DNA of 64,000 bases from Macrostomum lignano. Its lineage: Eukaryota. Each line of letters begins with the position of its first letter. The first letter of the stretch is position 1. A program made the position numbers and the translations under genes. The notes below the pieces were generated by a model, which was given only the letters and a program-made list of their open reading frames with translations, searched no databases and had not been told where the DNA came from. Positions 30,301-58,354 of the stretch are shown in pieces. The DNA lies in the NCBI GenBank assembly GCA_002269645.1, contig NIVC01000543.1:310001-374000 (forward strand), in the 5' to 3' direction.

Positions 30301-31683
30301 GGTCAGCCGGATCGGCCAACTCGGCTGACTGTTGCACATGTATGGATAGGATCCCAATCCCAATCCCAAAATCCTAGGATTCTGGTCTTGATCCTGAAAT
30401 CCCTGGATCCGAAGGTGTTATGTTAGAAGTCAAGGCAAGTGTGTGCAAGCTACGAAATGCTTAAAGCCAGCGATAGGCAGAGAGCCAATATATATATTAT
30501 TGTTTAGTCAAGTGTAGTGAGCAATTTACATTGTACGCGTCAATGGGAGACTGGGGGCAGGTGCACTAAGAGAGAAAGAGAAAGATTGCACGTCGGCTAG
30601 CCAGCATTGATCATTATACAATAGAAGGAAAATTGTATTCCCGCAAGACTAGGATCCTGACCCCAAAAAACACAAGAATTGGGAACAGGTCTTTTGATCA
30701 AAAGTTTATAGAATTAAATGATTACTTAAATGTATTTTGTTTTAACTTATATTCATTATATTATTACTTTGTTTGTTATAAAACTTTTTATCAATTTTGG
30801 TGTGTTTTACTTTTGATCTTGAATTTTTTTGCTCAATTTTGTCTAAATTTATATGGACCTACAAACTATAATATATTAAAAGACCTGGTCCCAATTCCTG
30901 AATCCCAATCCCTATCCTAATCCCAAGAAAAAATTATTCCTAATCCCAAGAAAAAAATTATTCCCAATCCCAATCAAAGATTTCAATCCTGTCTAGCCTC
31001 TAAAATTAAGCAATGATAGTCATCCAAAAGATTGCTAGTTTTATTATAATTCAATTTGAATTAATCCTATTAAAATCTTAAATCTTAATACTAATGGCAA
31101 TAATTACTATTAAACAATTTTTAATATAGAAGTAGTTTTTTTATTTAGGATATTAAGTAGGCCTATGGCTATATATGCATTAGATATAGAAAAATGTTTT
31201 ATTAGTCATAGTTTTATAATATACAAAATAGTAGATTAGATTAGGTTTCAATTAAAATGATAAAATATATAGGTCTATCTTGACTTAATCATAGGGCATT
31301 AGCCATTAGGCAAGTTAGTTAATCTTTGGCTAGCCTACTTTTATGTTTAATAGCTAATATGTTTAATATGTATAATTAAGTTTTAACAATATTAAAAACA
31401 GTTAAGATCTAGATCTGGACTTGGATTTGGTATGCAGAAACACAAAGTTAGACTGGTCTACTATATAGACAGAACTTTAAAACTAAAGAAAGAAACTCTT
31501 GAGTCTTACCTGCACATCTAATTCAATATTATTGACTATTCCTCTGCCTTTTGTGATGTCCACAGTAAGTTGATCAAGCGATATTTTCTTTGCTAAAAAA
31601 GTTCCAAGATAATGCTGTAAAAGATATCGACAAACTCTTTTTTTGAGCCCATCATGCAGGGAAAAGTTCCAGAATGAATTCAT
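11281..31683 (-). CDS. ATG2: Autophagy-related protein 2 (ATG2), 13 coding exons, about 2004 aa after adding 1 nt in exon 13
   Basis: N-terminal chorein-type segment LKKRVCRYLLQHYLG; RFDFNGG..GLLHLNDVELRLKRL..GLLG-type motif; GLQRGANSFASSSG; ATG_C tail GVVGMIRQLP. Exons: 31683-31510, 25757-24271, 23358-23181, 16958-16881, 16437-16294, 16081-15124, 15038-14745, 14664-14280, 14126-13969, 13816-13746, 13623-13027, 12906-12499, 12362-11281; all GT-AG, phases consistent. Confidence 0.93.
12499..12906 (-). CDS. ATG2: ATG2 exon 12
   Basis: IEDLEILDKVATSPINSFLY, VSLQPVRLIVDQDAFYFLKAFF motifs. Confidence 0.92.
13027..13623 (-). CDS. ATG2: ATG2 exon 11
   Basis: HLCSDSLQALLSLM..EGD, EPGLG, SLYGGLDF motifs. 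Confidence 0.9.
13746..13816 (-). CDS. ATG2: ATG2 exon 10 (not in ORF track)
   Basis: (D)YAHVAGFEVLELHVGMNDSTGVL, like ATG2 DYVCVLDVDLLELVI; TTTCAG acceptor, GTAAG donor. Confidence 0.78.
13969..14126 (-). CDS. ATG2: ATG2 exon 9
   Basis: (YR)PTKLQIGSILTV...FLFENADLYLTD; phase 2 to 1. Confidence 0.85.
14280..14664 (-). CDS. ATG2: ATG2 exon 8
   Basis: WLSQLMNMFELLDYPIEGYSAP..TTLHVSFSDIALNYR motif. Confidence 0.9.
14745..15038 (-). CDS. ATG2: ATG2 exon 7
   Basis: SEDEDE...FSLYHA; phase 1 to 1, GTAAG donor. Confidence 0.85.
15124..16081 (-). CDS. ATG2: ATG2 exon 6
   Basis: LRLYFPVPDLRP, PFSSKR, LYNRLLNDLTLWQP motifs; splice sites fit. Confidence 0.92.
16294..16437 (-). CDS. ATG2: ATG2 exon 5 (not in ORF track)
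   Basis: RGRELDRLSSVKLSLASCLIDVDLTLIDRLAALKEAF, resembling the ATG2 (L)DRLAALL motif; CAG|GTAC donor. Confidence 0.78.
16881..16958 (-). CDS. ATG2: ATG2 exon 4 (not in ORF track)
   Basis: VVAFPEQSLHSSQPSIRIDFVQTERH; polypyrimidine-CAG acceptor, GTAAG donor, 26 codons. Confidence 0.75.
18544..21555 (+). CDS. Single-exon type I transmembrane leucine-rich-repeat protein (signal peptide, LRRNT, many LRRs, LRRCT, FN3-like domain, TM, long cytoplasmic tail), nested antisense in ATG2 intron 3
   Basis: 1003-aa ORF; CSNKDLSDVP cap; repeated LxxLxLxxNxL; GNPFYCGC..QWL..MQCSSP LRRCT; hydrophobic span AVIAISVLAAILGIALIFVIVCLVC (about 20581-20658); AATAAA at 21745-21750. Confidence 0.9.
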   Translation: MISLQRSELFVVFCMNMAVALNSALYLSQENYAPCSFTSSPFRILDCSNKDLSDVPQVDRLMAVSAFYLDGNPIKSIGPSAFANMSSSLSFLSLTSTVAMDRIDDAAFTSLTALTSLNVEATKGNELSMNKVNIDKLFSGLKNLATVRMVSVNIKELPISFGGGTNIGNVSFVRAAIATIDLYAFSNASNLRSLDLSNNPLNLASTKMNWLGSAENLETVTLSTCEITSENLGQIPSMPKLRRLDLRLNKLKRLDTNSLVNVASSLEELVLSSNQISDVSTQGLANLASLKQLIMISNLNINAIPPEIKQLSNLELLDLRGTKVAGIQADSFHTNSKLKILKLDYTNVHSFHALAFARAANLEEFTVSAGSLSTSAILDTAGTQRPGNWSVILTEIPRIKVLSLSGIGMNANERGGITDGIWSSLILLPSLQKLTLEKNKLSSIPDFYFSYFRNLTYVNLRNNNISKLTSASMYGLGATKLLLQNNYLSYMDNCTLSMFEKLDSVSLGGNPFYCGCAMQWLWRRVSAEIAINLVSMQCSSPAKLSGRTWNTLSESDFCDLGETAPNNCSIQIPTTESPTTFSYLLDIKITKDTESTVRLEANLDRLVGKFSAYFIRYWLISQPEVVFNTSLMPLKAAVTTLRARVNEKYRYCYVLSNGTSQLLESLANCRDFTLTGLASAAVIAISVLAAILGIALIFVIVCLVCKKLRHRQSTQMRGYTEEDPYAYVYPDEKQVGKQPPNKSQFQATLRPESKRFSKRSRPNLSGSRPSLATSTTTLATPRMSSSGFAIQNGARPMSGQSMNQQHHQNPRLLREGVQPSQSMLSIANDKRARPEQHTQQQLSRSQDHLSGVSERGRSSRALPPAPRQAHSQELVLDVSQAVGRFKHLQQYPEQPPSLPPPRSRLLSLASEQQQQQPQPLSYTGYYGDGAYLPMSQATAGCLGESSTDQDHRLQTPVSLAYNEYLPDNEAQHGFSHSDRVAGGVDNSAFQRHETSGYYEMGQF
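21776..22433. repeat. Foldback inverted repeat, arms about 295 bp (21776-22073 and 22144-22433), spacer about 70 bp
   Basis: Arms are reverse complements, roughly 80% by eye (e.g. GTTAATTGCAC/GTGCAATTAAC, AATGTGACTGCACTT/AAGTGCAGTCACATT, CGGATACGTACGCAG/CTGCGTACGTATCCG). Confidence 0.9.
23181..23358 (-). CDS. ATG2: ATG2 exon 3 (not in ORF track)
   Basis: FLARPLKLTYTLEESRQLGKSSLSVSMGLADFTETLF...RVCD; TTACAG acceptor, GTGAGT donor, phase 2 to 0 fits neighbours. Confidence 0.8.
24271..25757 (-). CDS. ATG2: ATG2 exon 2
   Basis: SLNEVFRNQNIPLEMAEGIVEEISVSIPWSAL...CPHDHL; acceptor TTTTTTACCAG, donor GG|GTAAG. Confidence 0.92.
26260..26690 (+). pseudogene. Old Ty3/gypsy reverse-transcriptase relic in ATG2 intron 1
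   Basis: DLFVKLVGGCKWSKLDMLNAFLQL and GLYQLIHMPLG resemble gypsy RT DLFAKLAGGKKFSKLDL..AYLQL / GLYQY.RLPFG; stops and shifts present. Confidence 0.6.
28979..29564. mobile_element. MITE-like element (about 586 bp) with about 35-bp imperfect TIRs
   Basis: GGCAATGGCTAGAGTTCT.. / ..AGAACTCTAGCCATTGCC; flanks TATAAAGA and TATGAAGA (imperfect 8-9 bp TSD, hAT- or MULE-like). Confidence 0.7.
30031..31002. mobile_element. Non-autonomous hAT-type element (972 bp including nested MITE)
   Basis: TIR TAGAGGTTGGATAGGAT / ATCCTGTCTAGCCTCTA (14/17); exact 8-bp TSD AAATTAAG at 30023-30030 and 31003-31010; subterminal AATCCC repeats. Confidence 0.85.
30048..30344. mobile_element. hAT-type MITE (297 bp) nested in the left TIR of the 30031-31002 element
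   Basis: TIR CATACATGCGCAAC / GTTGCACATGTATG (13/14); exact 8-bp TSD GATAGGAT at 30040-30047 and 30345-30352. Confidence 0.88.
31510..31683 (-). CDS. ATG2: ATG2 coding exon 1
   Basis: MNSFWNFSLHDGLKKRVCRYLLQHYLGTFLAKKISLDQL...ELDVQ, donor CAG|GTAAG, 58 codons. Confidence 0.92.
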
Positions 31684-33245
31684 TGTGTCTTTTTGCAATA
31701 AGGTAGCTAGCAAAAGAAATGCAATTTAGGGGGGCTAGTTTATTATCAATTTAAGCATAATCAATGCCTTAAACTAAACTAAATCTATCAATTAATCCTG
31801 GTTATCTCATAGTATATAGATTTTCAGTAGGCCTACACCAACTTCTAGTTTTTTGATAGATAAGAATATAAAATTTTTTTATCTTCAGTACCCAGTAGAG
31901 TACCCAGTAGGGACATGAGCAGACAGAGCAGATTATAGACAAGTTACACCTAGCTCGATAATTTTAATTCCTTTCGATCTTTTAAAAAGTAGGTTAAAAT
32001 CAGCTGAGGCCTAAGATAGAATAAACTAACAAATGTTAGCTAAAATAAGTAGTGTAGACCACGAGTTGAAAATATTGAGAACTGGAATTTACTTATATTT
32101 TAAATACTAGCTATTGATTTTTAACAGAAATAACTGTTTATTTCCAATACTACGCTAAGTTGTACACTTGTATTTGCAAAACAGACATCAGACTATTTAA
32201 TGAGAATTAATTTCTTTTTCTATTTAAACAAATATGTAAAAATTCTTAATTTTTAATTTTCGATTTATCGCACGTTGCGGCCTCCATTTCATGTTCTATC
32301 TAGAGCATGGGCGGTTTAGGCTGTGAGGTTCAGGCCCGGCCCTCTGCATAAGCGCAGATTTTGCAGATACTTTTAGTACCCTGCTTTTTTACACGTTTTT
32401 TATCCTACTAAAACGTGCATATACTTAATGTTGTTTGTGGCTTGTGTGCACTAATAATTACTCTCGCAATTTCGTGTACATCTGTGTACACTGGCCCCCA
32501 CCCCTTCCTATGTACAGTGAAGTTCTCAACAATATATATCGTATTTACCCAGTGTCTGGGTCTAAGAGTTTTCTCGCTCGCTCGCAAACATGACTTGTGT
32601 GACAGTGTGATTCGTAGAAGCGTGTATCGTATTTCTTTATTTTCATATGCATACCGTACTACTACTATTCTTTCATTTTTTTAAACAATATTCATACGTA
32701 TTATTATCGCGCTATTTTTTACTGTTAATTGCTTTGTTTTTGTATGTATTTATTCTATTATTTGTATTTCATTCATATCGGTATTATTTCTCGTAAAGTA
32801 GTTCTACCTATGTACATGTACTGACGTATGTTATTCTTGCATGATATATTTATCGATTAATTTGTACATGTACATTGCGCGCCGCGTCGGGGGTTTGTCT
32901 GGGTTTTGGATTAGGGGTGTTGTTGTTTGTTATCTGTTTACCTACCAATTAAATATACGCTTGCAGTCAGCCGCCGCTCTCTCCCTTCGCTCCTGGGTTT
33001 TCGCTCCGCTTCTCGCGGGCCCCTTAGCCGTCGCATTCAATTGCTCTAGTCGTACTAAAATTAAGCAGCTACCAATCCAAACCTAACCTTAAATTCAACA
33101 TACCAAATCTGAAATCTGCAATTTACGCTAAGGGAAGTCGGCTGCTGGCTCTAGATTATTAAATTTAACCGCTACACAAATCGTACGTCTTCCCGCCTTT
33201 ATTCGTCCTACTTGGCATTTATCATAAAACACTTACGTCGTATTT

Positions 33246-34312
33246 TTAAAGCAGTGAGGCAACCAGAAACTCGTCGAGGGGGGGGGGGGCAAAAAGCCCA
33301 AGAGGCGGCCTGTATTTTGGCAAAAATGCGCTCGGCCGGCTTTCACTTTTCCAGGTCTCGATCCGTCCTGGGGCGGCTGTGGTGACAGGGGAAATCCCGG
33401 TCGTTTCTCCCGGAGTTCGGGCTTGTGTCCTGACCCTCGCTGTGGTCACCCACCCACTCGCGTACGACGCGAACTGGCGGACCGTGACTTGCCCAACTAC
33501 CGCTTCCAGCTGATGCACCAGACGCATCGCGTCCGCTAGGGTCTCCGGCTGGCTCATGTCAGTCGCTCCCGCACCGCCACACCCGCACGGACGCCCCGCA
33601 TAAATCGCTCCTTCGCAAGATCATCGCGCACATCGGCAGGCGCATCAGGAAAGGCGTTTGCTACCAACTCAATCACAGCTTCAAAGAAATCTTCCACCGA
33701 CTCCTTCTCGCTCTGCTCTCTATTGCTCAGTTCGGTGCGGTAGTCGACGACGGTACGGTGCATAGTGAACCTATCCCTCAAGGCCTGGGTAAACTCGATC
33801 TTCAAATGGCAAGTCGTCCCCAAGGTTCATGTTGTCAACAACTTGGAATGTGCTGAAGTCTAGGTTGCTAAGCAACTGGGCGCGCCGATTCTGCAACGGA
33901 ATCTGCATGGCATCGCAATATACGCTACGAAGAGCTGCAACTACTTCACGAAGTTCATGCCCGGAGCGAATTTCACCAGCCTCAGAATTCTGAGAGCACC
34001 AGCTTGCTGCATATTCTGCTGGATCTGGGCAGTCAACGCAGCGACCAGGTCGTTTACACCGAAAGCCGCACCACCACCAGCACCTCCAGCGGCACCTCCA
34101 GCGGCACCTCCAGCAGCACCTCCAGCAGCACCTCCAGCAGCACCTCCAGCAGCACCTCCAACATCACCTCCAGCAGCACTTCCAGCCTCCATGCCTCAGC
34201 TTCCCATGTCTCTAACCTCAAAATGTTCGCGCCTCGAGTCTTCTTCCTTGCTTAATCTTCCGCAGCGCAGGGTCCCACCAATAATGCCGTTGCGCAGGTG
34301 TACCAGGGTGGT
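33246..34312 (-). pseudogene. Degenerate retrotransposon gag-like ORF
   Basis: N-terminal VHLRNG; (GGAA)n linker; ALRDRF..R..Q...ESVEDF...L...AF.....RDDLAKERFMRG...V...L...PETLADA..L capsid-type motif; internal stops/frameshifts; no pol follows. Confidence 0.75.
34068..34187 (-). repeat. 12-bp tandem repeat (about 10 units) encoding (GGAA)n in the gag
   Basis: GCACCTCCAGCA/G units on + strand. Confidence 0.9.
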
Positions 34313-34397
34313 TAGGTGATGAGGAGTGGTGACGGCGTCAGGCGCACGGACCAAGCTGTTAGGTTAAGGTTTGCTTAGGTTGCTTTTGATGCTGCAG

Positions 34398-35372
34398 ATG
34401 TCTCTGTACGCCGAGCTGGACCTCGATCAAGCGGCGGACGCGGCGGAAGTCAGGAAGGCATACCGAAGACTGGCCCTGCTGTACCATACCGACAAACATC
34501 CGAACCGGCCATACGCGGAGGAGAAGTGCAAAGCCATCAACGAGGCAAAGCCTACGTTGATGGCGTAGTGCAAAGCCTACGCGATTCTAAAATGTCCGTA
34601 CCGACGGTGGCTGTACGACCTGTTCGGTGAGGAGTCCGTGTCCTTTAGTGGTGCGGTGGATTTGGCTAGACGGGTGTTCCCGCCGCCGGGCATCCAGGTA
34701 ACAGAAGACATCGCTGAGGCTCTGAGGTTGGACGAAGAGATGGAGAGCGAGCCGGAAGTAAGCGAAAGTGAATCGGCCAACGGCGATGGGTGGCGACCGC
34801 ATGACTGGGAGTCGGAGGAACAGGAGTTTCGCGAGCAGTGCGAGCAGGCGTACGCACCGGAGACAGCTCCAGAATGCGCCTACATCTGGATCAGCGACGA
34901 TGAAGAGGAGCGTGACAGCGAGATGGAGTCGGAGTTGGAAGACATACCGGACGTCCTAGCGTGGAAGCTGGTGTTGGCAGGGCGACAAGCGGTAGAGCCG
35001 GAGTGATTGGTGTTGCCAACGTCTGTAGAGTTTGGGGAGCTGCGGAAGAAGCTGAGAGAAGCTCTGCTAGCTGGCGAAGAGGCGGAGATTTGGCAGGCGG
35101 TGAGGCATCTGTGGGAGATGTTCGTAGCGCGAGGGGAAGAGCCCCGAAGATACGTCACGGCCGCGCTGGTTCAGGTGCTGAAGTTCTTGCGGCGTGATCT
35201 GTCGGTAACGTGGTCAAAGGGCCGCGGTCGACGCCGGGGTTGGAAGGTGGAGCGGTTGAGAAAGGCGGTGAGAGCGGTGAACGCCGTGGTTGAGCAGTAC
35301 AATCTGCTGCAAGCCGGTCACGTGAGGAGGCTGCTGCGCTGGTGTGCTCGAGTGGTGGCGTGCGATTGCTAG
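34398..35372 (+). pseudogene. Intronless J-domain (DnaJ/Hsp40-type) ORF with acidic middle and basic C-terminal region; two in-frame stops; HPD changed to HTD
   Basis: SLYAELDLDQAADAAEVRKAYRRLALLYHTDKHP..AEEKCKAINEA[30-nt insert with TAG]YAILKCPYRRWLYDLFGEE; track ORFs 34371-34568, 34638-35006 and 35007-35372 share one frame; AATAAA near 35850. Confidence 0.8.
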
Positions 35373-36758
35373 TAGGGTGTGAGTGTGGGTTGTGCTGGGG
35401 GTGCAGGCCCTGTCGTGCGGGTCCGGTTGTTCGTCTCCCTGTCCCTGATGCTGGTGTGTGTATCGTATTTTCCGTCTTACTCGTATGCTGATGGGTTACC
35501 GTACGGGTGGTATGAGGGTTAGGTAGAGAGGCGGCCGGGAGACTGGAGGCAGGAGGCGCACGGTTGGCGAGCACCTGGTCGTCCAGCGTGGGCAGCCATA
35601 GCGGCGGCCGGGTGAGCAGCAGCGGCGTCCTCCACTGAACTGGTGGCCTCAGGCCGAGCAGGTTCCAGCGGACGCCAAGCGGTCACCGGGCAGAAGCTTA
35701 AATCTGGTTCCGCCGGCGCCAGCACCAGAACCCCGGACCCAGGCCAGCTGGCGAGAGTCAACGGCACAGGGACGAGAAAGGGCAGCCGGCTCTTCAGGGA
35801 TGTGCAGAGGGACGGTGCGGTGGGAAACGGTGACTAGCTCTGATCCTTTATCAATAAACCCTGTTGCGTCGTTCATCGTTAAATAATTGGTGTCGGAATT
35901 CCATAAATCTTGTTGCGTCATTAGCAGTCAAGGGTTTTTGCGTCGTCAATGGTCGAATTTTTGCGGCATCAAACGTTGATTCCTTTTGTCATCATTGGTT
36001 CATCTGTTTGTTTTATTTCGTGTTCAACCCCATCAATTTCATGTACGCGTGTTGTCAGTCATGTAGGGCTGGCAGGCTTTGAATCCGTCGCCCAAGTGCG
36101 GTACAGATTGTGCAGCTGTGTTGTCATTCGTTGTCATGCGTTTCTGTAATCTGCGTTACTGGCTCGTATGAACTTCTTCCTTTTGTTGGGAGGCGGGGTT
36201 TTGTGCTGTGCACTTTTACAGTGCCAGTGCACCTAGCCTCCCAGCGGGCTGAGTCACACCGTCAACTGTTTGCCTGCATTATTTTTTGTTATTACCCCCC
36301 CCCCCTTGCGTATGCCGCAGCCAGAGGCTTAAGTCAGTTTGGTTTTTTGGTTTTTGTTCGCTCGCCCCGCGTGGCGATTGGTCGCGGCCAGCCCAGGCGT
36401 GTAGTGATTGGCTGAGCCGGCGGCGGGCCTGGTGCTGCCGTCCCCGGGGGGGTTGGCTAGGGGTTGGTGGGGTGGTGGGGTAGAGAGCGCGTGGCCCTTC
36501 CCCCCTCCGCGGGCGTGTGCTATTTAGCATCGCTCGCGGCGGGTTGGAGCGATGCGCGGCTCGGCTATCCCCCCCCTCTCTTAGAACTCTGCATTCCGTC
36601 AGCGTTATACAGCCACCAAAGTTACGCTCGTACGACCTGAAAAGAAATATATCGAAAAGGCCACCTACTTGCACCGGCCCTGAGCGACCGCCGCTAGCTG
36701 AGTAAGTGCGCATTCTGCCTTCCTTCTTTCGGTTGCCTAGGGGGGGACAGAGAGTTCG

Positions 36759-37048
36759 TGTATCCTGACGCCGACTCAGCTCGATTAGAGGGAGACGTCA
36801 GAAGGGTACCTACTGTACGTACCTACGCCTTTACGCCAGCCAGTGCGTCCCGACGCCTCGCTGAAGGCGGCCCGCACCACTGCGTCCCGACGCGTGGGAA
36901 GGCTGCATGGGTGCGTCCTGACGCCCCAGACTGTCAGGGGAAGTGCTCGCCCTAGCGCCCGCGCGCAGGCTAAGCAAGGACCCGCTTGTACTCGATACTG
37001 TACCCTGTAGGACCACCCTACTGCCGGGCCGGGGGCTGCAGGGATACA
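36759..37048 (+). mobile_element. Unpaired LTR-like segment (290 bp)
   Basis: Inverted termini TGTATCC...GGATACA; purine run AGGGGGGGACAGAGAG just upstream (PPT-like); no TSD and no second copy in the window. Confidence 0.45.
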
Positions 37049-37483
37049 ACAGAATGTTTTCTATAAAAGAGAAATACAGGTGCTTAAGTATAGTTGCCGA
37101 ACTTACCATTTGAAAGATGCAAGTCTTGGTTGGCTTGCGACTGATAAGCTTCGTCTGATGGGCTTCTTTGGTACTGTTGTGTTGCTACTCAATGCGTGTG
37201 CGTAGTTGTGTGTACGTTCGATGTACATCTGTTAGCTATCGATCGCATTACAATATATGATATATAAGTGAGAGCGCGGTGAGTTTGAGAGCTTGAGAGT
37301 TTCGCCTACAAACTTGCAGACTGGCTGGCTTATTCATTCTACAACATTGGCGTCGCAAGCTAAAGCCAACACCCACCCCAATTAGCCGGGGTTGGAGTCA
37401 GTCTGAGTGAAGTGTCTGCAAAACACACGCCAAGCCAACACAAGTTGCTACAACAGCGCCAAACTGCAAAAGTGCAAACGAAA

Positions 37484-38833
37484 ATGGCAAGCGACAATTC
37501 CTCAACAGAAGCGCCGCGGATCAGCGTATCGCCGCCAGATCAGTTCCTGCCGCAGCCAGGCCGACCGACGAGGCCGTGGAAAGAGTGGAAGTCTCTGTTT
37601 GAGAATTACCTGCTGGCGGCCGGTTATGACACTCTGCCGGAGGCGAGGAGGCGTGCGCTGCTGCTGCACTGCCTGGGCGCTGAAGGCCAGCGAGTCTTCA
37701 CGGCTGTGGCGGCAACGAGGACTCCGGCTCCGACAGGATTCGCTGCGACAATCACGATTCTGGACGAGCAGTTCGGGGTCAAAGTCAACGTGGTGGCCGA
37801 GCGCCACAAGTTTCGGCAGCGCAGTCAGCGTCCCGGTGAAAAGATTGCGGACTTTGTGGCGGCCCTGTATGCTCTAGCTGGCTCATGTGAGTTCCGCGAC
37901 ATGATGGAAGAAATGATTCGGGACCAGATCGTGGAGAAGGTCAGCGACAGGCGAATTCGAGAGCGCCTGCTGATTGAGGACGGTCTGACCCTGCAGAAGG
38001 CCGTGACTCTGAGCCAGCAGTGGGAGACCAGCATCGCCGAGGCCGGCCTGATCGAGATGGGAGGCGCAGCTGCTTCCGGAGCCCAGCTGGGAGAAGAGGT
38101 GAAGAGAGTCCGACTGCAAGCCGACAGGAAAGACGGAGGTCAGAGGCGATCAGCGGATCGCGAGCGCTGCTCGAAGTGCGGAGGCGGACACACCAGCCGA
38201 ACTCGCTGTCCAGCTGAAGGCAAGATGTGCCATGTCTGCGGTCGGGCGAACCATTTCGGCCGGGTTTGCCGGTCGCAGGGAGCCAAGGTCGCCGAGGTCG
38301 TGGACGATAGCGACCACGCCGTGTACACAGTTCGCGGTGCTGCCAGCCCCGACATCCGCTGCCGGCTGAAGATGCAGGGCACCTGGCTGAATCTGCTCGT
38401 GGACTCTGGAGCCAAGGTATCCATTCTGTCGGAAAGGACTTTTAGAAAACTCGGGAACCGGGTGCCACTGCAGCCGTCGACCCAGAAGCTAATCGCGTAC
38501 AACGGCGAGGCGATCAGTGTAGTGGGCGAGGCAGTGCTTTCCGTCAACTACCGAGAACAGCAGGTGCCGTTTTTCTGCTTCACCGTGGTGCAACAAGGCT
38601 CTGATATCATGGGCGTGGACTTGATGCAGCACCTCAACTTCCAGGTGGTGGACAGGGACGGCGACCTGGTGCGCACAGTCGATAAAACAGCAGAGCTGCC
38701 GACCTGGCTTCCCGAGCGCTTCAAGCCTCTGGCGCAGGGGCTCGGGCGGATCCGAGGATTCGAGCACCGGCCCAGGCTGAACCCGGCCGTGCCTCCCGTA
38801 TCTGCCGCTCCGCCGTATTCCACTCAGCATTAA
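37484..38833 (+). CDS. gag-pro: Element A gag-protease (single frame)
   Basis: MASDNSS..., CSKCGGGH and CHVCGRANHF knuckles, LLVDSGAKVS protease. Confidence 0.85.
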   Translation: MASDNSSTEAPRISVSPPDQFLPQPGRPTRPWKEWKSLFENYLLAAGYDTLPEARRRALLLHCLGAEGQRVFTAVAATRTPAPTGFAATITILDEQFGVKVNVVAERHKFRQRSQRPGEKIADFVAALYALAGSCEFRDMMEEMIRDQIVEKVSDRRIRERLLIEDGLTLQKAVTLSQQWETSIAEAGLIEMGGAAASGAQLGEEVKRVRLQADRKDGGQRRSADRERCSKCGGGHTSRTRCPAEGKMCHVCGRANHFGRVCRSQGAKVAEVVDDSDHAVYTVRGAASPDIRCRLKMQGTWLNLLVDSGAKVSILSERTFRKLGNRVPLQPSTQKLIAYNGEAISVVGEAVLSVNYREQQVPFFCFTVVQQGSDIMGVDLMQHLNFQVVDRDGDLVRTVDKTAELPTWLPERFKPLAQGLGRIRGFEHRPRLNPAVPPVSAAPPYSTQH

Positions 38834-39873
38834 GGACAAGGTCCAGGCGGAGATCGACCAGCTGTTGGCAGATGACATCGTCGAGGAGATCCAAGCTTCC
38901 GAGTGGATTTCGAACCTCGTGATCGTCCCGAAGCCCGAAGGTAAAATTAGAATCTGCAACGACCTCAGGTGTCCAAACAAGGCTATAGTGCCGGATAAGC
39001 AGCCGCTGCCAACTTTCGAGCAGCTGACGACGGAGTTCAAGGGCTCGACCGTGTTCACGAAGCTCGATTTGAACTCGTCGTACCTGTAGCTGGAACTGGC
39101 GGAAGACCGGCGGGACCTAACGGCCTTCATCACGGAGAAAGGCCTTTACCGGTACAAGCGCGTCTGCTACGGCCTTAACAGCGCTCCAGCAGCCTTTCAG
39201 AAGGTGCTTAGTAAGATTCTCCACGGCTGTTTGGGGACGCTGCACTACATTGATGATATCGTGGTGCATGCTGCCAACGAGACGGAGCACCGGCGGCGGC
39301 TCACGGCAGTGCTGGACCGGCTGCTCGCCCATGGCGTTACGCTTAACACCGCCAAGTGCCAGTGGGCTGCAGAGTCCGTGCAGTTTCTGGGCTACATCGT
39401 CTCGGCGAGAGGCCTTCAGCCGATGCAGTCCAATGTGGAAGCCATCGAAGCGGTGCCGGAGCCTCAGAACACCGAGGCGGTGGCCTCATTTCTCGGAATG
39501 GTAAAGTTTTACTCGAACTTCCTACACAACTGTAGAGAGCGAAGCCGAGAGAGAGAAAGTTAAGTGTTGTGTGTAGCCGATAAAGCCTCAATCCATTGTA
39601 GGCTCTGTGCGATCGATTTATATATTTAGCAGCGACCCTGCAGTTGAGACTGCGTACATTAAAAACAGAAAGCCAAGAATATTGGATGTACATCGGAAAT
39701 GCACACCAGGACTAAAAACACTTATTATGCAAGCACTGGGCAGCAGGTGCCTACAATTCTCCCCAACCAGAGAGATCTCAGGGGATAAAAAAAACGAGCT
39801 CAATTACTCAGTTACTACCGGCCCAAACCCCAAAGCAATCAAAGCGGCCCGCCCACGCACAAAAACCCTAGGA

Positions 39874-42800
39874 TCACAATTTGTAGCTGAGCACTCTGTT
39901 ACGGGCAGCTCTTGGATGTTCTCGCGTGGCGATGCTACCGCTGGGTAGACCGGCGGGCTCTCCGGCAGGTTGGCCGGCAGGTTGGCCGGCAGGTTCGCCG
40001 GCAGGTTGGCCGGCAGGCTCTCCGGCAGGCTGGCCGGCAGGCTGGCCGGCAGGCTGGCCGGCAGGCTGGCCGGCAGGCTGGCCGGCAGGCTGGCCGGCAG
40101 GCTGGCCGGCAGGCTCTCCGGCAGGCTGGCCGGCAGGCTCTCCGACCAGGGGCCGCAGCTGCGAGACGTGGCGCATGCAGGACTGTTCGCCGCGTTGCAG
40201 GACACACGTGTCTCCCTGGACCTGCTTGACTGTCCAAGGATGTGGCTCGAACGGCAGCTGCAGTTTGTTACGTGGCTGCTTCTTTCGCAGAACTTTGTTG
40301 CCGACTCTGACGCCGTGCTCCTTGACACCCTTGCGATCATCGAAGCGCGCCTTCATGTCTTGGACATAGTTTCTGTGCCAGCTCTGCACCTCTTCATGGT
40401 TAACGTCGATGAGCTGTGATGGTTTGATGGTCGGGATGCCGTTGTTCATCGTCCTGCCCATGAGTAGCTCAGCAGGTGCGCGGCCGGTCGCTCGATGTGG
40501 TGTCGTGCGGAACGCCAACAGCCAGTCCTCGATAGCCTCCCGCCAGTTACGACCTTCGGCCACTGCCGTCTGAATCACTTTCCCGATGCTGCGGTTGACT
40601 CGCTCCGTCGCTCCATTGGATTCTGGGTGCAGCGGGCAGATGAGGCGGTGGTGAATGCCGTACGAAGCGAGGAAGCTGCGGAAAGCTGCCGAGCTGAATG
40701 GCGGGCCGTTGTCGGTGACCACCTCAATCGGGACGCCGTATCTGCCGAACAGCCTCCGCAGGTGGGGGATCACGCTCTCCGCCGTCGTCGAGTTGAGAAA
40801 ATTGACTTCTGGGTATTTTGAATACAAGTCGGTGGTGACCAGGAGCATCTGGCCCTGCACTGGGCCGTAGAAATCCATACCTAGTAGCAGCCAGGCACCG
40901 TCCGGAATATCTGTCGGCCTCTGTCGCAATCCGGTGGCCGCAGCCTGGCACAGTGTGCAGCACTGGACGAAGAGCTCGCAGTCGCTGCGCATCCGAGGCC
41001 ACCACACCTTCGTCTGCAGGCGTTTAAGGGTGCGATCGGTGCCCAGATGACCGGTGTGCGCCAGTTGAAGGATCGGCCTGCGCAGCGACTCGGGGATGAC
41101 GATGAGGTCACCGCGGAGTAATACTCCGTCGCTTTCCGACAGTTCGCCGCTGATGGACTTGAAGGAGCGCTGGGCTGCCGCTCGCATGTCCCAGCGGCCG
41201 GTTCGAATCGCGTTCAGCGCCGCCTGGACGTCCCTGTCGGTGCGCGATGCTTCCCGAACCTGGTCGAGACTGAAGCCCTTTGGCACGGCCCCGGTCGACA
41301 CGGCGTTGGTGAAGGCGGCGTCGAGCTCTTCACCTACATTCCGACGCCGCTCTGGCAGTGGCTGCCGACTCAGCAGGTCAGCCGGGTTGGTCGAGCCTGG
41401 CCGGTAGAGCAGGTTGAAGCGGAGATGCTGAATGCGCAGTGCCATTCGCTCGATCCGCGGTGGCGGACGGGAGCCAGGCTTGAAAAGCGGCACGAGCGGT
41501 CGGTGGTCCGTCACCACGACGAAGTCTGGGTCGCCAGCCAGATAGTGCTCAAACTTGAGACACCCAAATTTGATGGCCAACGCCTCCCGCTCGATCTGCG
41601 CGTACCGCTGCTCCACCGGCGAGAGGGCTCTGCTGGCGTAGGCGACGGGTCTGCTGTTGCCGTCTGGCTGCCGCTGCGTGAGGATGGCGCCGAGGCCGAT
41701 CGGCGATGCGTCCACCAGGAGCTCCGTGTGCAGCCTGCGGTCGAAAAAGGCCAGCGTGTCCGCGTCTGAGAATGCCTTCTTGATGCCGTTAAACGCCGCT
41801 GTGTGTTTTTCTGTCCACTCCCAGGCTTGGCCCTTCTTCGTTAGCTGCCGGAGTGGGGCCGCGAGGTCAGCGAAGTTCGGGATGAACTTTGCCAGGAAGT
41901 TAGCGGTTCCCAGGAAAGAGCGGACGTCGGCCACGTTGGAGGGCTCTCGGAAGTTCTGCATGGCGTCAATTTTCTCGGTGGCCGGTTGCATGCCCCGGGT
42001 GGTCAGGCGCATCCCAAGAAACTCGACAGTCGGCCGGGCGAACCTGCACTTGTCCTGATTGAGGGTGATCCCGAACTCTCGGAGGCGCTGAAGGCAGGCG
42101 TCCAGCCTCTCATGGTGCTGCTTCAGGTCGGAGGCGTATACCACCACGTCGTCGTGCGCCCACCGGACGCCGTCGATGCCGCTGAGGATGCCAAGCATGA
42201 CTCGTTGAAGGATTTCCGAGGCATTTGTGAACCCCAAGCTGAGCCTCTTGAGCCGCATCAGTCCGAGGGGCGTGCTGAAGGTGAAGAGGTGACGGCTGCT
42301 CTCGTGGACTGGGATCTGATAAAAAGCCTTCCGGATATCGAGTTCGCTGAACAGCTTGGCGTCTGCCATTTCCTCGGTGATTTCATCCAGCGTGGGGATT
42401 TGCTGCTTCTCTGGGATGACGAAAGCGTTGAGATCACGGAGGTCCTGGCAGATTCGAACGCCACCGTCGTCCTTGGGCACCACCACCATGCGTGACACCC
42501 AGGCGCTAGGACCTTTGACTGCCTCAATGATGCCCTGCTCCTCCAAAGCCTTGAGCTCGTCAACTACGGCCTCTTTCAGGTGCGCCGCCACACGTGAGGG
42601 CGCCTGGCAGACTGGAACAGCGTCATCGGACAGCTGGATCTGGACCTCTACACCCTTGATGCAGCCGATGCCGTTGAAGACTTCTTTGTGCCTCTGCAGG
42701 ATGGCCTTGAGCTGGGGGTCGCTACACTGCTCGGAGGGTGTGGTGTCGGCGATGGCGTTTATGTTTTGCGGCTTGGTAGCTTCAGGTCGCTGGATCTTCA

Positions 42801-43200
42801 GCACTCCTAGCTTGAATGCGGGCTGACGCCCCAGTATCGTCAGGCCGTCGCCGTCCATGATGTGGAAGGTCGCGGTTGTTCTGGCAGATCCCACTTGGAT
42901 GTCAAGATCGGCGGTACCCACAATCCTGAGAGGTGTCGGTACCCCGTAGGCGCGAACTTCGGCTCTTGTTGGGCGTGGGCTTGGCAGGCTGAGCGCTCTG
43001 AAGGTGCCGAGACTCATGATACTGCAGCTGGCTCCGCTGTCAATCATCATGGGAAGCTGCCAGTTTGCCACCTGCACAGTCAGTGAGACGTCGGATGGGT
43101 ATTTGTCGCGGTTGTACAGCGCAAACACATCCTCGTTGACGGAGCCGTCGGCAGCTGTGAATACAGCATTGGTGCTGATTTGCTGCTGTGGAATCCGGCT
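39874..43200 (-). CDS. pol: Element B pol (PR-RT-RH-IN), uninterrupted, -1 frame relative to gag
   Basis: IDSGAS, RICQDLRDLN, AHDD, VDASPIGLG, HTGHLG..C..C, TDNGPPF; 1084-aa track ORF, frame open further upstream. Confidence 0.93.
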   Translation of the reverse strand, partial: SRIPQQQISTNAVFTAADGSVNEDVFALYNRDKYPSDVSLTVQVANWQLPMMIDSGASCSIMSLGTFRALSLPSPRPTRAEVRAYGVPTPLRIVGTADLDIQVGSARTTATFHIMDGDGLTILGRQPAFKLGVLKIQRPEATKPQNINAIADTTPSEQCSDPQLKAILQRHKEVFNGIGCIKGVEVQIQLSDDAVPVCQAPSRVAAHLKEAVVDELKALEEQGIIEAVKGPSAWVSRMVVVPKDDGGVRICQDLRDLNAFVIPEKQQIPTLDEITEEMADAKLFSELDIRKAFYQIPVHESSRHLFTFSTPLGLMRLKRLSLGFTNASEILQRVMLGILSGIDGVRWAHDDVVVYASDLKQHHERLDACLQRLREFGITLNQDKCRFARPTVEFLGMRLTTRGMQPATEKIDAMQNFREPSNVADVRSFLGTANFLAKFIPNFADLAAPLRQLTKKGQAWEWTEKHTAAFNGIKKAFSDADTLAFFDRRLHTELLVDASPIGLGAILTQRQPDGNSRPVAYASRALSPVEQRYAQIEREALAIKFGCLKFEHYLAGDPDFVVVTDHRPLVPLFKPGSRPPPRIERMALRIQHLRFNLLYRPGSTNPADLLSRQPLPERRRNVGEELDAAFTNAVSTGAVPKGFSLDQVREASRTDRDVQAALNAIRTGRWDMRAAAQRSFKSISGELSESDGVLLRGDLIVIPESLRRPILQLAHTGHLGTDRTLKRLQTKVWWPRMRSDCELFVQCCTLCQAAATGLRQRPTDIPDGAWLLLGMDFYGPVQGQMLLVTTDLYSKYPEVNFLNSTTAESVIPHLRRLFGRYGVPIEVVTDNGPPFSSAAFRSFLASYGIHHRLICPLHPESNGATERVNRSIGKVIQTAVAEGRNWREAIEDWLLAFRTTPHRATGRAPAELLMGRTMNNGIPTIKPSQLIDVNHEEVQSWHRNYVQDMKARFDDRKGVKEHGVRVGNKVLRKKQPRNKLQLPFEPHPWTVKQVQGDTCVLQRGEQSCMRHVSQLRPLVGEPAGQPAGEPAGQPAGQPAGQPAGQPAGQPAGQPAGQPAGEPAGQPAGEPAGQPAGQPAGEPAGLPSGSIATREHPRAARNRVLSYKL
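39950..40144 (-). repeat. 12-bp tandem repeat (about 16 units) encoding (G-Q/E-P-A)n at the integrase C-terminus of B
   Basis: CCGGCAGGCTGG-type units on + strand. Confidence 0.95.
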
Positions 43201-43988
43201 GCTGTTTGCCGAGGCTGACGGCAGGCAAGAGCGAGGTGGTTGGGCTTACCGCAGTTGTGGCAGATCTTGCCCTTGGCAGCGTCGCAGGTAGCGTGGCCTT
43301 TCTCGCCGCAGCGGTAGCAGGTGCGCTGCTGCTGGTCGCCGGGCCTGCTATTCGTCTGAGCCGGGCCACGCCTGTTCGTTCTCACCTTGTCGCCCTTGGC
43401 AACGCTGGCCACGTGCGAGTCTGTCTTCTCCATCTCCGTGGCTTGTTCCTCTGCAGCCTCGAATGCCCTCGCCTTTCGCAAGGCCTCTTCCAAGCTGATG
43501 TTCGCCTCCTGAAGCAGCCGCCTGCGCAGCTTGTCAGAGCTGCAGGTTGCCACGAGCTGGTCTCTGATGAGCGAGTCCTTCAGCTGCTCGAAGTCGCACG
43601 GCTCTGCCGCAGTGCGCAGTCTGGCGTACCAGGACTCGATGGACTCTCCGGTGGCCTGGGTGCATAGGCGGAACTGATATCTGGCGAATACTATGTTCTT
43701 TCTTCCGTTGAAGAATGTCTTCAAAGCGTCCAGCGTCTGCTTGAGGGTGACTTGGCCGTCCTCTGTGGCCGCTGCAGGCTTGGCCTCCTCGCGGATGATG
43801 TCGGCGATTTCCTTGCCTGCTGTGTAGCTGAGTAGTTTGCACTTTTGCTTCTCGTTGGTGATGCCTGATGCATCGATGAAGTCTTCAAAGCGGTCCGCCC
43901 ATTGACTCCAGCGCTTGCCCGCGTTGTGTGGGTCTGCTGATACTGAGAATGGCTCAGGTGGGGGCAGTGAGAGAAAGTTGGCTGCCAT
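43080..43988 (-). CDS. gag: Element B gag
   Basis: Starts MAANFLSLPPP at 43988; CYRCG..GH and CHNCGKPNH knuckles. Confidence 0.9.
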   Translation of the reverse strand: MAANFLSLPPPEPFSVSADPHNAGKRWSQWADRFEDFIDASGITNEKQKCKLLSYTAGKEIADIIREEAKPAAATEDGQVTLKQTLDALKTFFNGRKNIVFARYQFRLCTQATGESIESWYARLRTAAEPCDFEQLKDSLIRDQLVATCSSDKLRRRLLQEANISLEEALRKARAFEAAEEQATEMEKTDSHVASVAKGDKVRTNRRGPAQTNSRPGDQQQRTCYRCGEKGHATCDAAKGKICHNCGKPNHLALACRQPRQTAAGFHSSKSAPMLYSQLPTAPSTRMCLRCTTATNTHPTSH

Positions 43989-44355
43989 GATTTGTTTACC
44001 GCGCGGTAGGCGGCTTGCGACGCCACTGTAGAGAGCGAAGCCGAGAGAGAGAAAGTTAAGTGTTGTGTGTAGCCGATAAAGCCTCAATCCATTGTAGGCT
44101 CTGTGCGATCGATTTATATATTTAGCAGCGACCCTGCAGTTGAGACTGCGTACATTAAAAACAGAAAGCCAAGAATATTGGATGTACATCGGAAATGCAC
44201 ACCAGGACTAAAAACACTTATTATGCAAGCACTGGGCAGCAGGTGCCTACAACAACCTATCCGACATCGCCGAGCCGCTGCTGCAGCTACTTCGCAAGGA
44301 CTAGCCTTGGAACTGGACAGCGGACTGCCAGAAGGCCTTTTGGAGGCTTAAGAAG

Positions 44356-45920
44356 ATGGTAGTATCCCCAACGTGCCTGCGATTCTTCTGTCCCGACGAC
44401 AAGATAATCGTGGCCTGCGACAGCTCTGCGCACGCTCTGGGTGCCGTGTTGATGCAAGAAGACAGCGCTGGCGTTCGCAAGCCAGTTGCTTTCGCGTCGA
44501 GGACTCTGTCGGCGACCGAGCGCAAGTACTCCGCGTCAGAAAGAGAGGCGCTGGCATGTATCTTCGCCTGCGAGCGTTGGCACTACTTCCTGTTCGGCCT
44601 GAGATTCGAACTGCACACCGATCACCAGGCTCTGACGACGCTGCTGACGGCTCAAGGCAGCGGCCACCGACCTTTGCGGCTGCACCGATGGGCCGACCGC
44701 CTGCTCGCGTACGACTTCCAAGTGTGCCACGTTCCCGGCAAGAAGAACATCGTGCCCGACTTTTTGTCACGCCATGGCGCTTTCGGAGAAGATTGCGCTG
44801 AAGATCCGACCGAGCACCAGGTGAATGCCGTATTGTTATCGGGCGCGTTGGAGGTTGTCAGCGCAAGCGATTTGGCCGAGGCATCCCTGCAGGACCCGGT
44901 AATAAGCGAAGTAATAGCTCTGACGCTCCAGGGATGGCCGAGCTCCATCAAGCATCTGCGGTCGGAGTTGCAGCCGTTCTGGAGAATCCGAACGCAGCTG
45001 ACGGCCTGGAATGACGGCAAGTGCCTGGCCAACGGCACTCGAGCGGTGATCCCCGCATCCCTGAGGGAGAAGACGCTGCAGCTGGCACACTTCGGGCACC
45101 TCGGCGTGAGCAGAAGGAAGCAGCACTGTCGGGACGCCGTCTGGTGGCCGCAAATCGACCAGCACATTGAGGAGTTCGTGCGGCACTGCGAGGCCTGTCT
45201 GCTAAGCGAGAAGAATTTCAAGCCATCCAAGACGGTTCTGACCCCGACAAAGTGGCCGATGCGTCCATGGGAGGAGCTTCAGCTAGACATCTTTGGGGAG
45301 CTGCACTCGGCTCCGAACTCCTCCTACCGCTTCATCTTGGTGCTGTACGACTTGCACTCAAAGTGGCCGGAGGCTGCCTGCATGTCAACCATCACAAGCG
45401 CTGATGTCATCGACGCCTTGACAACGTGGTTTAGTCGTTGTGGGCTGCCGAAGAGTATCAACACAGATGGAGGGCCTCAGTTCGTGTCCGGTGATTTCGA
45501 GGATTTTCTCCGGCGCTGTGGCATCCAGCATCGGCAGTCGCCGCACTACCACCCTCAGGGCAACGTGGCGGTGGAGCGTTTCAACCGGTTTCTCAAGGAC
45601 GGCCTCAAGACGCACTTGGAGGAGGGCTATGACTTCAAGGACGCGGTGAAGGCACTGCTATGGTCGTACAGAGCCACCCCGCATGCACTAACTGGAGTTT
45701 CGCCGGCGGAGCTGATGACAGGCCGGAAGATCAGCACTCCCCTGACAGCCCTACAGCCAAGGACGGCAGCGTGGCACAGACTGGCGGCCGGCATCAAGCG
45801 GAAACAGCAGCGAGTTTTCAACCAGCTCAACTCGACCAGGAGACCCCCGCCGACTTTCATGGTTGGCGACTGGGTGCGGGTGAAGCGGCCGTTCGCCCGC
45901 GGCAAGCTAAGCAGCCGAGC
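44356..45920 (+). CDS. pol: Element A RNase H-integrase remnant
   Basis: ACDSSAHALGAVL, YSASEREALA, HFGHLG..C..C zinc finger, TDGGPQF, VERFNR. Confidence 0.85.
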
Positions 45921-46694
45921 CTCGAGAGATCTCCCGGATCGCGAGCGCCACCACCGTCATCCTCAATGTTGGCTCCCGCTGGCACGTCGACAATTGTGTT
46001 CGAGTGCCGCGGCCCGCCGGAGCGCTGCCACACTGGCCCGCGACGGCTTCCAGCGCGGCGGCGATTCCGGCGGCAGAGCCAGCGCGGCCGCAGCAGACAG
46101 CCCAGACTGCGGTTCGAGTGAGCACGAGGACGCGAGCGCCTCCACAGTGGTACGGGGAAATTGTGACGCACTAACTGATTTATTAGTGACTGCTAACTGG
46201 CATTATCACGAACGCTGTGTATTTGAAGCGAAATTAGTTGTTCTCAGATTAATATTGCGATTTAATGCTCAGCGAAATACTCAGTGTGATGATATGCTTT
46301 TATTCCTTCGATGCTCAGTCATGCGCTTTTATTCCTTGTTCAATATTTCGACGAATTCGGTTTTCGCAATTCCGCTCATCGGAAGGGAAGGTGAATGTTG
46401 TGTTGCTACTCAATGCGTGTGCGTAGTTGTGTGTACGTTCGATGTACATCTGTTAGCTATCGATCGCATTACAATATATAATATATAAGTAAGAGCGCGG
46501 TGAGTTTGAGAGCTTGAGAGTTTCGCCTACAAACTTGCAGACTGGCTGGCTTATTCATTCTACAACAGGTACCGCAGTATCCAAGCTGGGATTCTTTGGA
46601 ACTGTCGGCTGCTCGACTAAATCTATTGGCCGCTTTGAGGCATCGCTTATAGCCGTCGAGGCGTTGAAGACTGGCACTGGCATGGCTCAATCTC

Positions 46695-47210
46695 TTGAGC
46701 TCGGAGAAGACTCCATCGAGGATTGCTCGGTGGCTAAACATGAAAATTCGAACGGTATACTCAATAAGAAGGCGATACGAAACCACTGGCCGCCAAGATC
46801 GTCTTCCCAGAGGCGGCTTGCGACACGAAAAAACTTGGAGAGATGCACACAAACACGCTGCTGCAAATGTTGGAAGAAAATCCACTTTTAACGCTGAGTC
46901 AAATGCAACATGATCTTCAACAATCTCATGGAATGGAAGTTAGCAAAAGTACGATCGCTCGGAAGCTCGACAAGCAATTGTTTACGATGAAGTGCTTGGT
47001 AAGGGACGCAGATGTGCCAGCAGCCAGGAACAGCCCCGAAAACGTTGCAATGATGCGTGAGCATGCCGAATGGCTGCTAGGTCTGCCAGCTGATTGCCAT
47101 TTGATTTACGTCGACGAAACAGGCTTTAATCTGTGGACGCGACGTGGTCAAGGCCGCAGCAGATGTGGTCAACGAGTGCGCCGGGTTGTTCATACACAAC
47201 GCGGTGTCCA
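46695..47210 (+). mobile_element. Tc1/IS630-like transposase fragment (N-terminal HTH to first catalytic Asp), frameshifted and truncated
   Basis: IARWLNMKIRTVYSIRRRY..TG..LPRGG; VSKSTIAR; LIYVDETGFNLWTRR. Confidence 0.75.
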
Positions 47211-47211
47211 A

Positions 47212-47790
47212 GTGAACAACCAGTCCGACGCTCGATGACACCTCGACCAGCCGTTTGATCTGGCGCTGGGCGCCTTCAACGGACGAGGACAGGAGGAGGG
47301 CTAGGTCGTCGGCGTAGCCAAGCACGCTCAGGCACTTTTCGCTGTGGCGGCGACCGATGTGTCTGCGCAGCAGCAGGAAGCCGTCGTCAGCCGAGGGGAG
47401 TGCGGTCCGAAGCACCCAGTCCAGCAGCAGCAGGAGGAACGGCGCCAGCGTGTCGCCCTGCAGAACTCCTGATGAAGTGTCGAACAGGTCAGACAGGCCG
47501 TCCGCCGTCGACATCACAGCAGCTCGAGTGTCGTGATACAGCGACATGACAGCGTCGACTAGCTGCTGGGGTACCCGGTAGGCTCGCAGGACAAGGGGAA
47601 GCGCGGCTCTCAACACCGAGTCAAACGCCTTTCGAAAGTCAACGAAGACAATGATCAGCGTTGACTGGCGGATGCGCGGCTTCTCGATGACACGGCGGAG
47701 TGCGAGGATCTGTGTCACTGTACCGCGTTGCGGCCGGAATCCGTTCTGCTCGTACCGCAGGTACGGGTCTAGCACCGACTGCAGACGATG
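47212..47790 (-). mobile_element. Non-LTR (RTE-like) reverse transcriptase fragment
   Basis: EQNGFRPQR, FVDFRKAFDSV, GVLQGDTLAPFL, LGYADDLAL. Confidence 0.9.
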
Positions 47791-49030: not shown

Positions 49031-49113
49031 GACGTTCATCCCTTTTGTTCATGTCAACGTTTTGTTGTTTTTGACTGTTAAGAAGTGGCAATCGAGGCGC
49101 TATCGTTAGGAGA

Positions 49114-52100: not shown

Positions 52101-52630
52101 CTACTTGCCCCACTCGGGTGTTGTCACTGCTGCGGCCTCTCTGCGTTTTTCTTCCGCCCTTTATGCTCATTTTTGACGGTGGTCTTCTCGCTGGTTTGTT
52201 TTTGCAATGTGCCTAACTGCCATGGTCTCAGCCCCCGTTGTGTTTGGCTTTGGAGGCCTTCTTCGTTGCTGAGCCAAATTCGCATTTTAATTCCTTGTAG
52301 CTGGAAGCACAATAATAAACTGGTTTGTGAGGCGCAAGCGCACAAACCGGCTTTAGTGCCCAGCGCGTTGATTTGTACATGTGCATCGCCGCCAGCCCCC
52401 CACCTCTGGGTGGCAGGGCCGGGGGGCCGGGGGTGTTTTTAAAACCCCCGTCGCGCCGCTCTACTGGCGGCTCACTGCCTTATCGCAGTGATTTTTTTCT
52501 TTTTTTCTCGTGTTAAGTCTGCTTTAAGCTTAATAGATTGAAGATCGAAACACTTTTTTTATTGACGGAGGCCTTCCTTTCTGTGCCAAATTCGCGTTTT
52601 AATGCCTTCGTAGCTGGAAGCACTAAAACA
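49114..52630 (+). mobile_element. Degenerate Ngaro/DIRS-like tyrosine-recombinase retrotransposon
   Basis: gag-like ORF with CFDYNRIRGCERKSCRFPHRCRRCG finger; RT RLIHDCSRP, KVDLSEAYR, RLPFG, YLDDF, LTFLGVELDT; RNase H IYCDN; recombinase HSLRRGGAT; split 3' direct repeats 52252-52312 / 52567-52625. Confidence 0.85.
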
Positions 52631-57772: not shown

Positions 57773-57943
57773 CTGCGAAAGCACAAACAGTAAGGTGCGA
57801 TTTATTATCGAGAGTTTGGCAAAGTCGAGAGTTTACTCGACTTATTAGCTTGTAAAAAATGCCGACTCCAAAAAACTCCGGCATTCAAACCGATGTTACT
57901 TTTGAGTTTAAAAGCAGCCCTAATCGTGACAGATAATACGCAC

Positions 57944-58354
57944 TTGTTGTTGAGTCTCTCTGCAGCTACTGCTCACGGATGCAGCGATAGTGCTGCTGGC
58001 CAGACTGGTATCTTCGTGCTTGAGCTGCCCGTCCAATGCGAGTCCTCGCTTGTCCCTGTTGTTGGAAAGCAGCGGGCAGACACGGTAAACCTTGCACCAT
58101 CCCGTCTGCGATGGGCCGATGGGAAATCCCTCATCTGACTCGAGTTCAGCTACAGCACACTTGTAGCTGTTCGGGCTGAACAGGCAGATGTCGGCAACTT
58201 GGCTCACTGTGATACGCACCCGCTTCACCGAACGGTGAGAGTTGTTGTCAACCAGCACGTTGATGGCGATAGACTCGCCGTGGTAGTACTGCTCTTTGTC
58301 CAGACTGGCCTCCAGCCTCAGACAGCCGGAGCTCATCATAAAAGCCTTGGTGGT
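57944..58354 (-). CDS. ARRB: Beta-arrestin (non-visual arrestin), penultimate coding exon
   Basis: [58 protein letters not shown]; donor CAA|GTGCG; acceptor at 58355 is a best guess (137 codons, phase 0). Confidence 0.92.

Follow-up and report, generated by a model that had tools for sequence, protein, structure and literature searches.

A J-domain ORF3 in a clade of Ty3/Gypsy retrotransposons of Macrostomum lignano and its possible recruitment of Hsc70 to a nuclear host complex

The closest described parallels to a retrotransposon with a captured accessory gene are the bdelloid LTR retrotransposons, whose ORF3 encodes non-env cargo (GDSL esterase, DEDDy exonuclease) and is typically spliced, according to the part of the source available to us (PMC5408684). 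The words 'DnaJ' and 'chaperone' have zero occurrences in that article. In J proteins and in polyomavirus T antigen it is the HPD motif that recruits Hsc70, as stated in the sections consulted of PMC11720896. The LTR families of Macrostomum lignano have been classified, 40 of them in Gmr1/Osvaldo; neither DnaJ nor ORFs occur in the main text as far as consulted, and a term search of five supplementary files revealed DnaJ at 13 places, which are rows of transcript tables and are not tied to elements (PMC12801592). The sequence-only reading of the present locus had known of no described LTR retrotransposon family with a J-domain gene, and none was found in the literature searched, with Repbase, GyDB, subscription journals and bioRxiv supplements lying outside it. 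The J-domain ORF3 is apparently an undescribed kind of retrotransposon cargo. Positions below refer to the window, a 64,000-nucleotide stretch of M. lignano DNA (contig NIVC01000543.1).

The J-domain ORF of the window and its junction with gag

The window holds, on the plus strand at 34398 to 35372, a decayed ORF with a Pfam DnaJ match of E 1.1e-13, composed of a J domain, an acidic linker and a five-helix C-terminal domain (CTD, 35007 to 35372). It is intronless and GC-rich, as had been read from the letters (60% GC against 33% in 31000 to 33200), and its C-terminus is basic and helical. An acidic region was present as well, but it measures 76 residues (38% D/E by the bounds used here) and not the proposed 120 or so. 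The suspected decay is evident from a TAG at 34566 to 34568, which lies within a 30-nt insertion in helix III relative to the sister copy L020, from a TGA at 35004 to 35006 that precedes the CTD, and from the change of HPD to HTD. At 91 to 96% nucleotide identity to L018–L020, L023 and L024, this copy belongs to subfamily A3; dN/dS values of 0.75 and 1.11 against its own subfamily do not differ from neutral.

Upstream of the ORF, the pol-ORF3 spacer (34287 to 34397, plus strand; 96% to L023/L024) ends in a splice-acceptor-like CAG directly 5' of the ATG. In L023 and L024 the matching spacer lies directly 3' of the pol stop. Downstream, the 3' untranslated region (35373 to 36198, plus strand) contains the AATAAA noted near 35850, here placed at 35853 to 35858, and a polypurine tract at 36188 to 36198. 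It is followed by the 3' LTR of the A3 element (36199 to 37051, plus strand), which is 853 bp long, ends in ACA and bears a splice-donor-like GTAAGT at about 36702. This LTR starts 0.83 kb past the ORF stop and not 1.4 kb downstream, where an LTR-like segment had been placed. The stretch 37175 to 37346 was rejected as an LTR of the J element; it pairs with 46396 to 46567 and forms part of an unrelated Gypsy insertion. From the set of LTRs, primer-binding site and polypurine tract, the window copy retains only the polypurine tract and 3' LTR, and pol is indeed missing from the window, for the J element and the gag element alike.

The divergent, broken gag-like ORF on the minus strand could be confirmed. 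It comprises the 5' two-thirds of a family B-like gag (33471 to 34192; 86–88% nucleotide identity to L041/L043/L044) and has 74% amino acid identity to an intact family-B gag, with a Retrotrans_gag match (E 0.0025) below the cut-off. Its ATG at 34192 and that of the J-ORF at 34398 are 205 bp apart, which corrects the earlier figure of about 90 bp. The B-like piece begins at position 34288 with a primer-binding site and leader (34193 to 34288, minus strand; the 5' LTR is missing), continues through part of gag and then, across an internal deletion, passes into the final 94 bp or so of a family B/G-like Gypsy LTR (33378 to 33471, minus strand), whose outer end has a short stretch in common with another, overlapping repeat. 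A genome search with the gag DNA gave 25 places at 83 to 89% identity (40 candidates scored), and these are family B elements with an ORF3 of their own, 328 residues long, that contains a J domain, a chromodomain and the same CTD.

The point at which the inverted B-like fragment meets the A3 element (34287 to 34288) is unique: among 30 matches to a 171-bp junction query, 27 covered the gag side only, two the J side only, and one, the window itself, spanned both. The gag and the J gene had been taken for one dead mobile unit, and such a unit would be transcribed divergently from a shared leader. Both genes do come from related elements, and the primer-binding site is the exact place of the join. 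However, the junction is single-copy, its two sides map to different families, the two outer ends of the block have no target duplication in common, and a head-to-head gag was found in none of the 38 other J matches, which makes a divergent unit highly improbable. The layout is a chance join of two broken elements from two related families. In its simplest history, two elements would have inserted next to each other in opposite orientations and deletions would have come afterwards; because the break lies exactly at the primer site, a template switch is a possible alternative origin. The window locus is the debris of a dead element, and the gene itself is a real, selected retrotransposon cargo.

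Several other repeats are found in the window. An unrelated Gypsy element with 172-bp LTRs, separate from the J element, occupies 37175 to 46567 (plus strand) and has a second, intact-looking Gypsy nested inside it at 39518 to 44252. This insertion splits a transposase remnant (37076 to 37174 and 46568 to 47238) that we take to be Tc1/IS630-like. A decayed element at 49075 to 52440 with reverse transcriptase, RNase H-like and tyrosine-recombinase-like frames is presumably DIRS/Ngaro-like, judged by motif labels. Further features are an AT-rich repeat of about 610 bp at 32598 to 33207 that has many copies at 90–95% identity, a presumed exon at 57920 to 58399 (minus strand) that appears to resemble an arrestin C-terminal domain, and a young Gypsy at 58788 to 63161 with nearly identical LTRs and a pol frame of 1090 residues.

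Ty3/Gypsy families with the J-domain ORF3

Searching the genome with the J-ORF DNA yielded 15 matches at 64–100% identity, and a search with the CTD only gave 68 matches among 83 candidates. The J-ORF is multi-copy, and HPD is intact in other copies. Layout was counted at 39 chosen loci; at two A3 loci, and at that of G, no match passed the threshold used. In 34 of the 38 J matches the ORF lies directly after pol, at most 3 kb downstream of it and on the same strand. Of the two positions suggested earlier, the env-like slot is thus the one that applies; antisense in a gag leader does not, the ORF being elsewhere on the sense strand after pol.

In the copies fetched, gag and pol (PR-RT-RH-IN) precede the J-ORF on the same strand. 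Families A, B and C have both the gag (CA, zinc knuckle) and the pol domain order by which Metaviridae are defined (PMC7879559). Full-length relatives with pol and paired LTRs, which the sequence-only reading had proposed to look for, were found, and they also have a primer-binding site and polypurine tract. Their LTRs are long (770–950 bp), with TG...CA ends, and the two LTRs of a copy are 97.6–99.9% identical apart from one family-C pair at 87.5%; 4-bp target duplications flank 8 of the 11 elements examined, at seven distinct sites. In A2, C and D the primer site complements a tRNA-Lys(TTT) gene found in the same genome; family A has a related Lys-type site, and B and E use different ones. 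From this element anatomy we can identify the J-ORF, with near certainty, as the ORF3, in the env slot, of a Ty3/Gypsy clade.

The named J families are A, B/G, C/H, D, E, F and I. In trees that hold only elements of the M. lignano genome, they form one clade against six outgroup elements without ORF3 for integrase (support 100/100), and the J-family clade has a support of 99/99 for reverse transcriptase. In a tree of J domains that included 19 from host genes (21 loci), those of the elements group together, apart from the host ones, with weak support (80/82; 74 columns). Their helix IV has a C/D-P-F/Y-R motif in common that is absent from the host domains. On account of this grouping and motif, the sequences fit a single capture of the J domain by the clade. 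The separation from host domains also argues against a processed pseudogene of a host DnaJ gene, which would account for the intronless ORF and the AATAAA downstream. Such a pseudogene is further contradicted by the polypurine tract and LTR that follow the ORF, by the lack of a G/F region and by a CTD found in only eight genuine proteins of 1.84 billion, and its probability is negligible. A multi-copy ORF under purifying selection in full-length LTR elements is instead a retroelement accessory gene, as had been supposed from the start.

Between subfamilies, dN/dS lies below one as predicted (0.09–0.30), with purifying selection in seven lineages and with dS close to saturation in several pairs and at saturation between B and G. 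Family A against the window copy gave 0.22 (J domain 0.17, linker 0.14, CTD 0.30), and the pol controls were similar (0.15 and 0.28). By dN/dS, selection on the CTD is as strong as that on the J domain.

HPD is kept in families A–G, that is, in seven of the eight named families with a J domain. Family I (five copies: L092, L093, L095, L097, L098) is abundant and intact, and its ORF3 of about 558 residues consists of a J domain without HPD, the CTD and a TatD-like domain. Its sister family K (L096, L100, L103) also branches within the clade; between its pol and 3' LTR lie about 1.2 kb with no homology to ORF3, and its LTR donor motif has been kept. Because family K lacks ORF3 despite the complete 3' ends of L096 and L103, ORF3 is dispensable. 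Families I and K both count against an essential Hsp70 role.

When a CTD profile was run against the 1.84 billion proteins, ten were found, of which two (P0132 and P0133) were discounted as apparent repeat or chance matches. The eight genuine ones are two proteins named as M. lignano, four Logan records and two JGI records; the latter six share 34–76% identity with the nearest family in this genome, and the best match of P0003 in this assembly is at 46%. NCBI PAA78660.1, a 'hypothetical protein' of M. lignano without a description, has the same sequence as the ORF3 of family B.

Apart from the ORF3 group, an intronless frame of up to 1449 residues with an N-terminal J domain (HPD) was observed at L056:1226-5572 (minus strand) and L057:4245-8591 (plus strand), and frames of this type occur with the same score at five places on contigs C575, C1744, C1901 and C3488 (two). 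They match only DnaJ in Pfam, and the J tree places them apart from the ORF3 group. This frame is possibly a second mobile J gene.

Predicted ORF3 protein and splice signals

In the AlphaFold2 model of ORF3, residues 1–104 form a J domain, predicted with confidence, and a helical extension; a disordered acidic linker (107–204) and a five-helix CTD with a basic loop (pLDDT 89) follow. The predicted J fold overlays solved J domains at 1–2 Å rmsd. A four-helix J fold with the HPD loop is present in families A–G and absent from the window copy (HTD, stop) and family I. In keeping with the earlier remark that the C-terminus does not resemble DNAJA/B, neither PF00684 nor PF01556 matched, no G/F region was seen and the CTD is predicted to be all-helical.

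The only Pfam matches of ORF3 are DnaJ, Chromo and TatD. The chromodomain of family B lies between J domain and CTD (E 1.5e-12) and has two of the three aromatic cage positions, which were taken from HP1. TatD was matched in family E (E 1e-8), and a TatD-like domain has been added in both E and I. No transmembrane segment was detected in six ORF3s, where the highest 19-residue hydropathy was 1.04–1.49, and ORF3 contains no LxCxE, origin-binding or helicase domain. From the missing transmembrane segment and LxCxE we conclude that ORF3 is neither an env nor a T antigen.

The structure prediction proposed earlier for the C-terminal domain thus delivered a five-helix fold but no informative fold match: Foldseek found nothing for the CTD at E ≤ 0.001 in PDB or BFVD, and the best VIA hit (M-Sec, Z 8.3, rmsd 3.9, 117 aligned) is in a range common for helical bundles and speaks neither for a new nor for a known fold. 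In the ESM Atlas there was nothing usable for the CTD, and for P0003 generic J clusters under 0.9. A CTD-Gag complex predicted without alignments scored 0.00, which has no bearing either way.

Splice-like motifs are found at both ends of a putative ORF3 intron. A GTAAG donor occurs at LTR position 480–560 in all seven full LTRs scanned (families A–E). A YAG is located 0–1 nt 5' of the ORF3 start in families A, B/G, D and F, against a background of 14 in 300 ATGs, and a CAG lies 16 nt upstream of the start in C and 7 nt upstream in I. Together, these motifs suggest a spliced ORF3 mRNA. The ORF3 of family E has no ATG, and joining its donor A|GT (four of four copies) to the acceptor AG|TG would create one; this is suggestive only, because A-family donors also end in A.

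Contigs from runs X5 and X7 (two studies; RNA type guessed) break off exactly at the family-B donor, which suggests that the donor is used. A joint from donor to ORF3 was not present in the contigs of four runs (guessed RNA or unknown kind; family B only). The contigs that break at the donor run on into sequence outside the element (L044:9477), and may represent LTR-driven chimeric host transcripts. None of the runs in which the sequence occurs is recorded as RNA. In runs guessed as RNA, contigs cover the length of family B. This coverage is not proof of expression, since a run guessed as RNA, X1, also contains the empty insertion site, like the untyped X15. The empty site in both runs fits a recent or polymorphic insertion.

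Possible function and comparison with known systems

In the mechanism that we propose, the LTR donor would be spliced to the acceptor at the ORF3 start, and the resulting ORF3 RNA would encode a class C J protein. Its HPD would stimulate the ATPase of Hsc70, like that of other J proteins, and the CTD with its basic loop would hold a client. Recruitment of Hsc70 is probable. The add-on modules, one a chromatin reader and the other a fold that binds nucleic acid, would make a repressive chromatin or RNA-silencing complex the most likely client, and Hsc70 would then loosen it in the way that T antigen acts on Rb. As such a module is found only in two of the seven lineages plus family I, the target of family A is not indicated by its own anatomy, and a nuclear host complex as the target of ORF3 is put forward tentatively. 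The overall reading, a dead ORF3 joined by chance to the gag of a sister family and an intact gene that is likely spliced and recruits Hsc70 to a nuclear host complex, is held with slightly less than even confidence. We are more doubtful of an extended version, by which a J domain captured once would have become a modular, T antigen-like counter-defence, with the CTD and swappable readers aiming Hsc70 at silencing complexes, an env-style spliced RNA and a splice that may form the start codon.

Auxilin brings Hsc70 to clathrin coats, and ORF3 could similarly act as a particle chaperone by directing Hsc70 to the Gag capsid of its own element, to help it assemble or uncoat. In favour of this role, all J families have inherited Gag and ORF3 as a pair, the HPD motif is conserved, and a separate RNA would permit timing of expression. 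Yet family K and all outgroup families manage without ORF3, and the chromodomain and TatD-like additions are unnecessary for capsid work; we consider this role unlikely. In a further alternative the J domain would bind or titrate a partner, Hsp70 or some other, and pass no client on to it, or else the CTD would work alone. A decoy or scaffold of this kind is compatible with the abundance and intactness of the HPD-less family I and with a CTD selected as strongly as the J domain; heat induction of some M. lignano LTR families, reported in the part of PMC12801592 consulted, was also counted in its favour. Against it stand the retention of HPD in most J families and the absence of a heat-shock element, even with one mismatch, from a three-unit scan of 10 LTR regions of the clade, and we rate it marginally below the capsid role. 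The loosening of a host silencing complex is favoured over both, although it too stays just short of an even chance.

To our knowledge, few animal retrotransposons encode a suppressor of silencing. A small soluble protein makes evasion of host control or uncoating testable, and the natural HPD-less and ORF3-less families offer built-in controls. Young J families are present in a species whose LTR elements have already been the subject of RNA-seq and transgenesis work, as described in part of PMC12801592.

In summary, ORF3 shares single traits with several known systems. It does not answer to the description of env-bearing Metaviridae, in which ORF3 has transmembrane and surface domains. Like class C J proteins such as auxilin, it joins a J domain to a dedicated client-binding domain and has no G/F region or zinc finger; unlike them, it is encoded by an element, and its CTD has no known fold match. 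Chromoviruses have a chromodomain at the C-terminus of integrase. Family B resembles them as a Gypsy element with a chromodomain, but here this domain lies inside ORF3, and pol of A, B and C has no Chromo match. With polyomavirus T antigen, as far as the consulted part of PMC11720896 describes it, ORF3 shares an N-terminal J domain with HPD followed by a disordered region, the setting of a genome or cell parasite and a presumed function as an Hsc70 adaptor; it differs by the absence of LxCxE, origin-binding and helicase domains and by belonging to a retrotransposon, with no sign of homology beyond the J fold. The elements themselves resemble Osvaldo/Gmr1 in their tRNA-Lys primer (A, C, D), 4-bp duplication, long LTRs and PR-RT-RH-IN order, a likeness by features, drawn from parts of both sources (PMC3286476, PMC12801592), whereas their ORF3 is not an envelope and B and E use other primer sites. 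The bdelloid elements, in the available part of PMC5408684, are likewise Ty3/Gypsy elements with a captured non-env gene after pol that is gained and lost by family; in contrast to their cargo, that of the M. lignano clade is a J-domain co-chaperone joined to an orphan helical domain.
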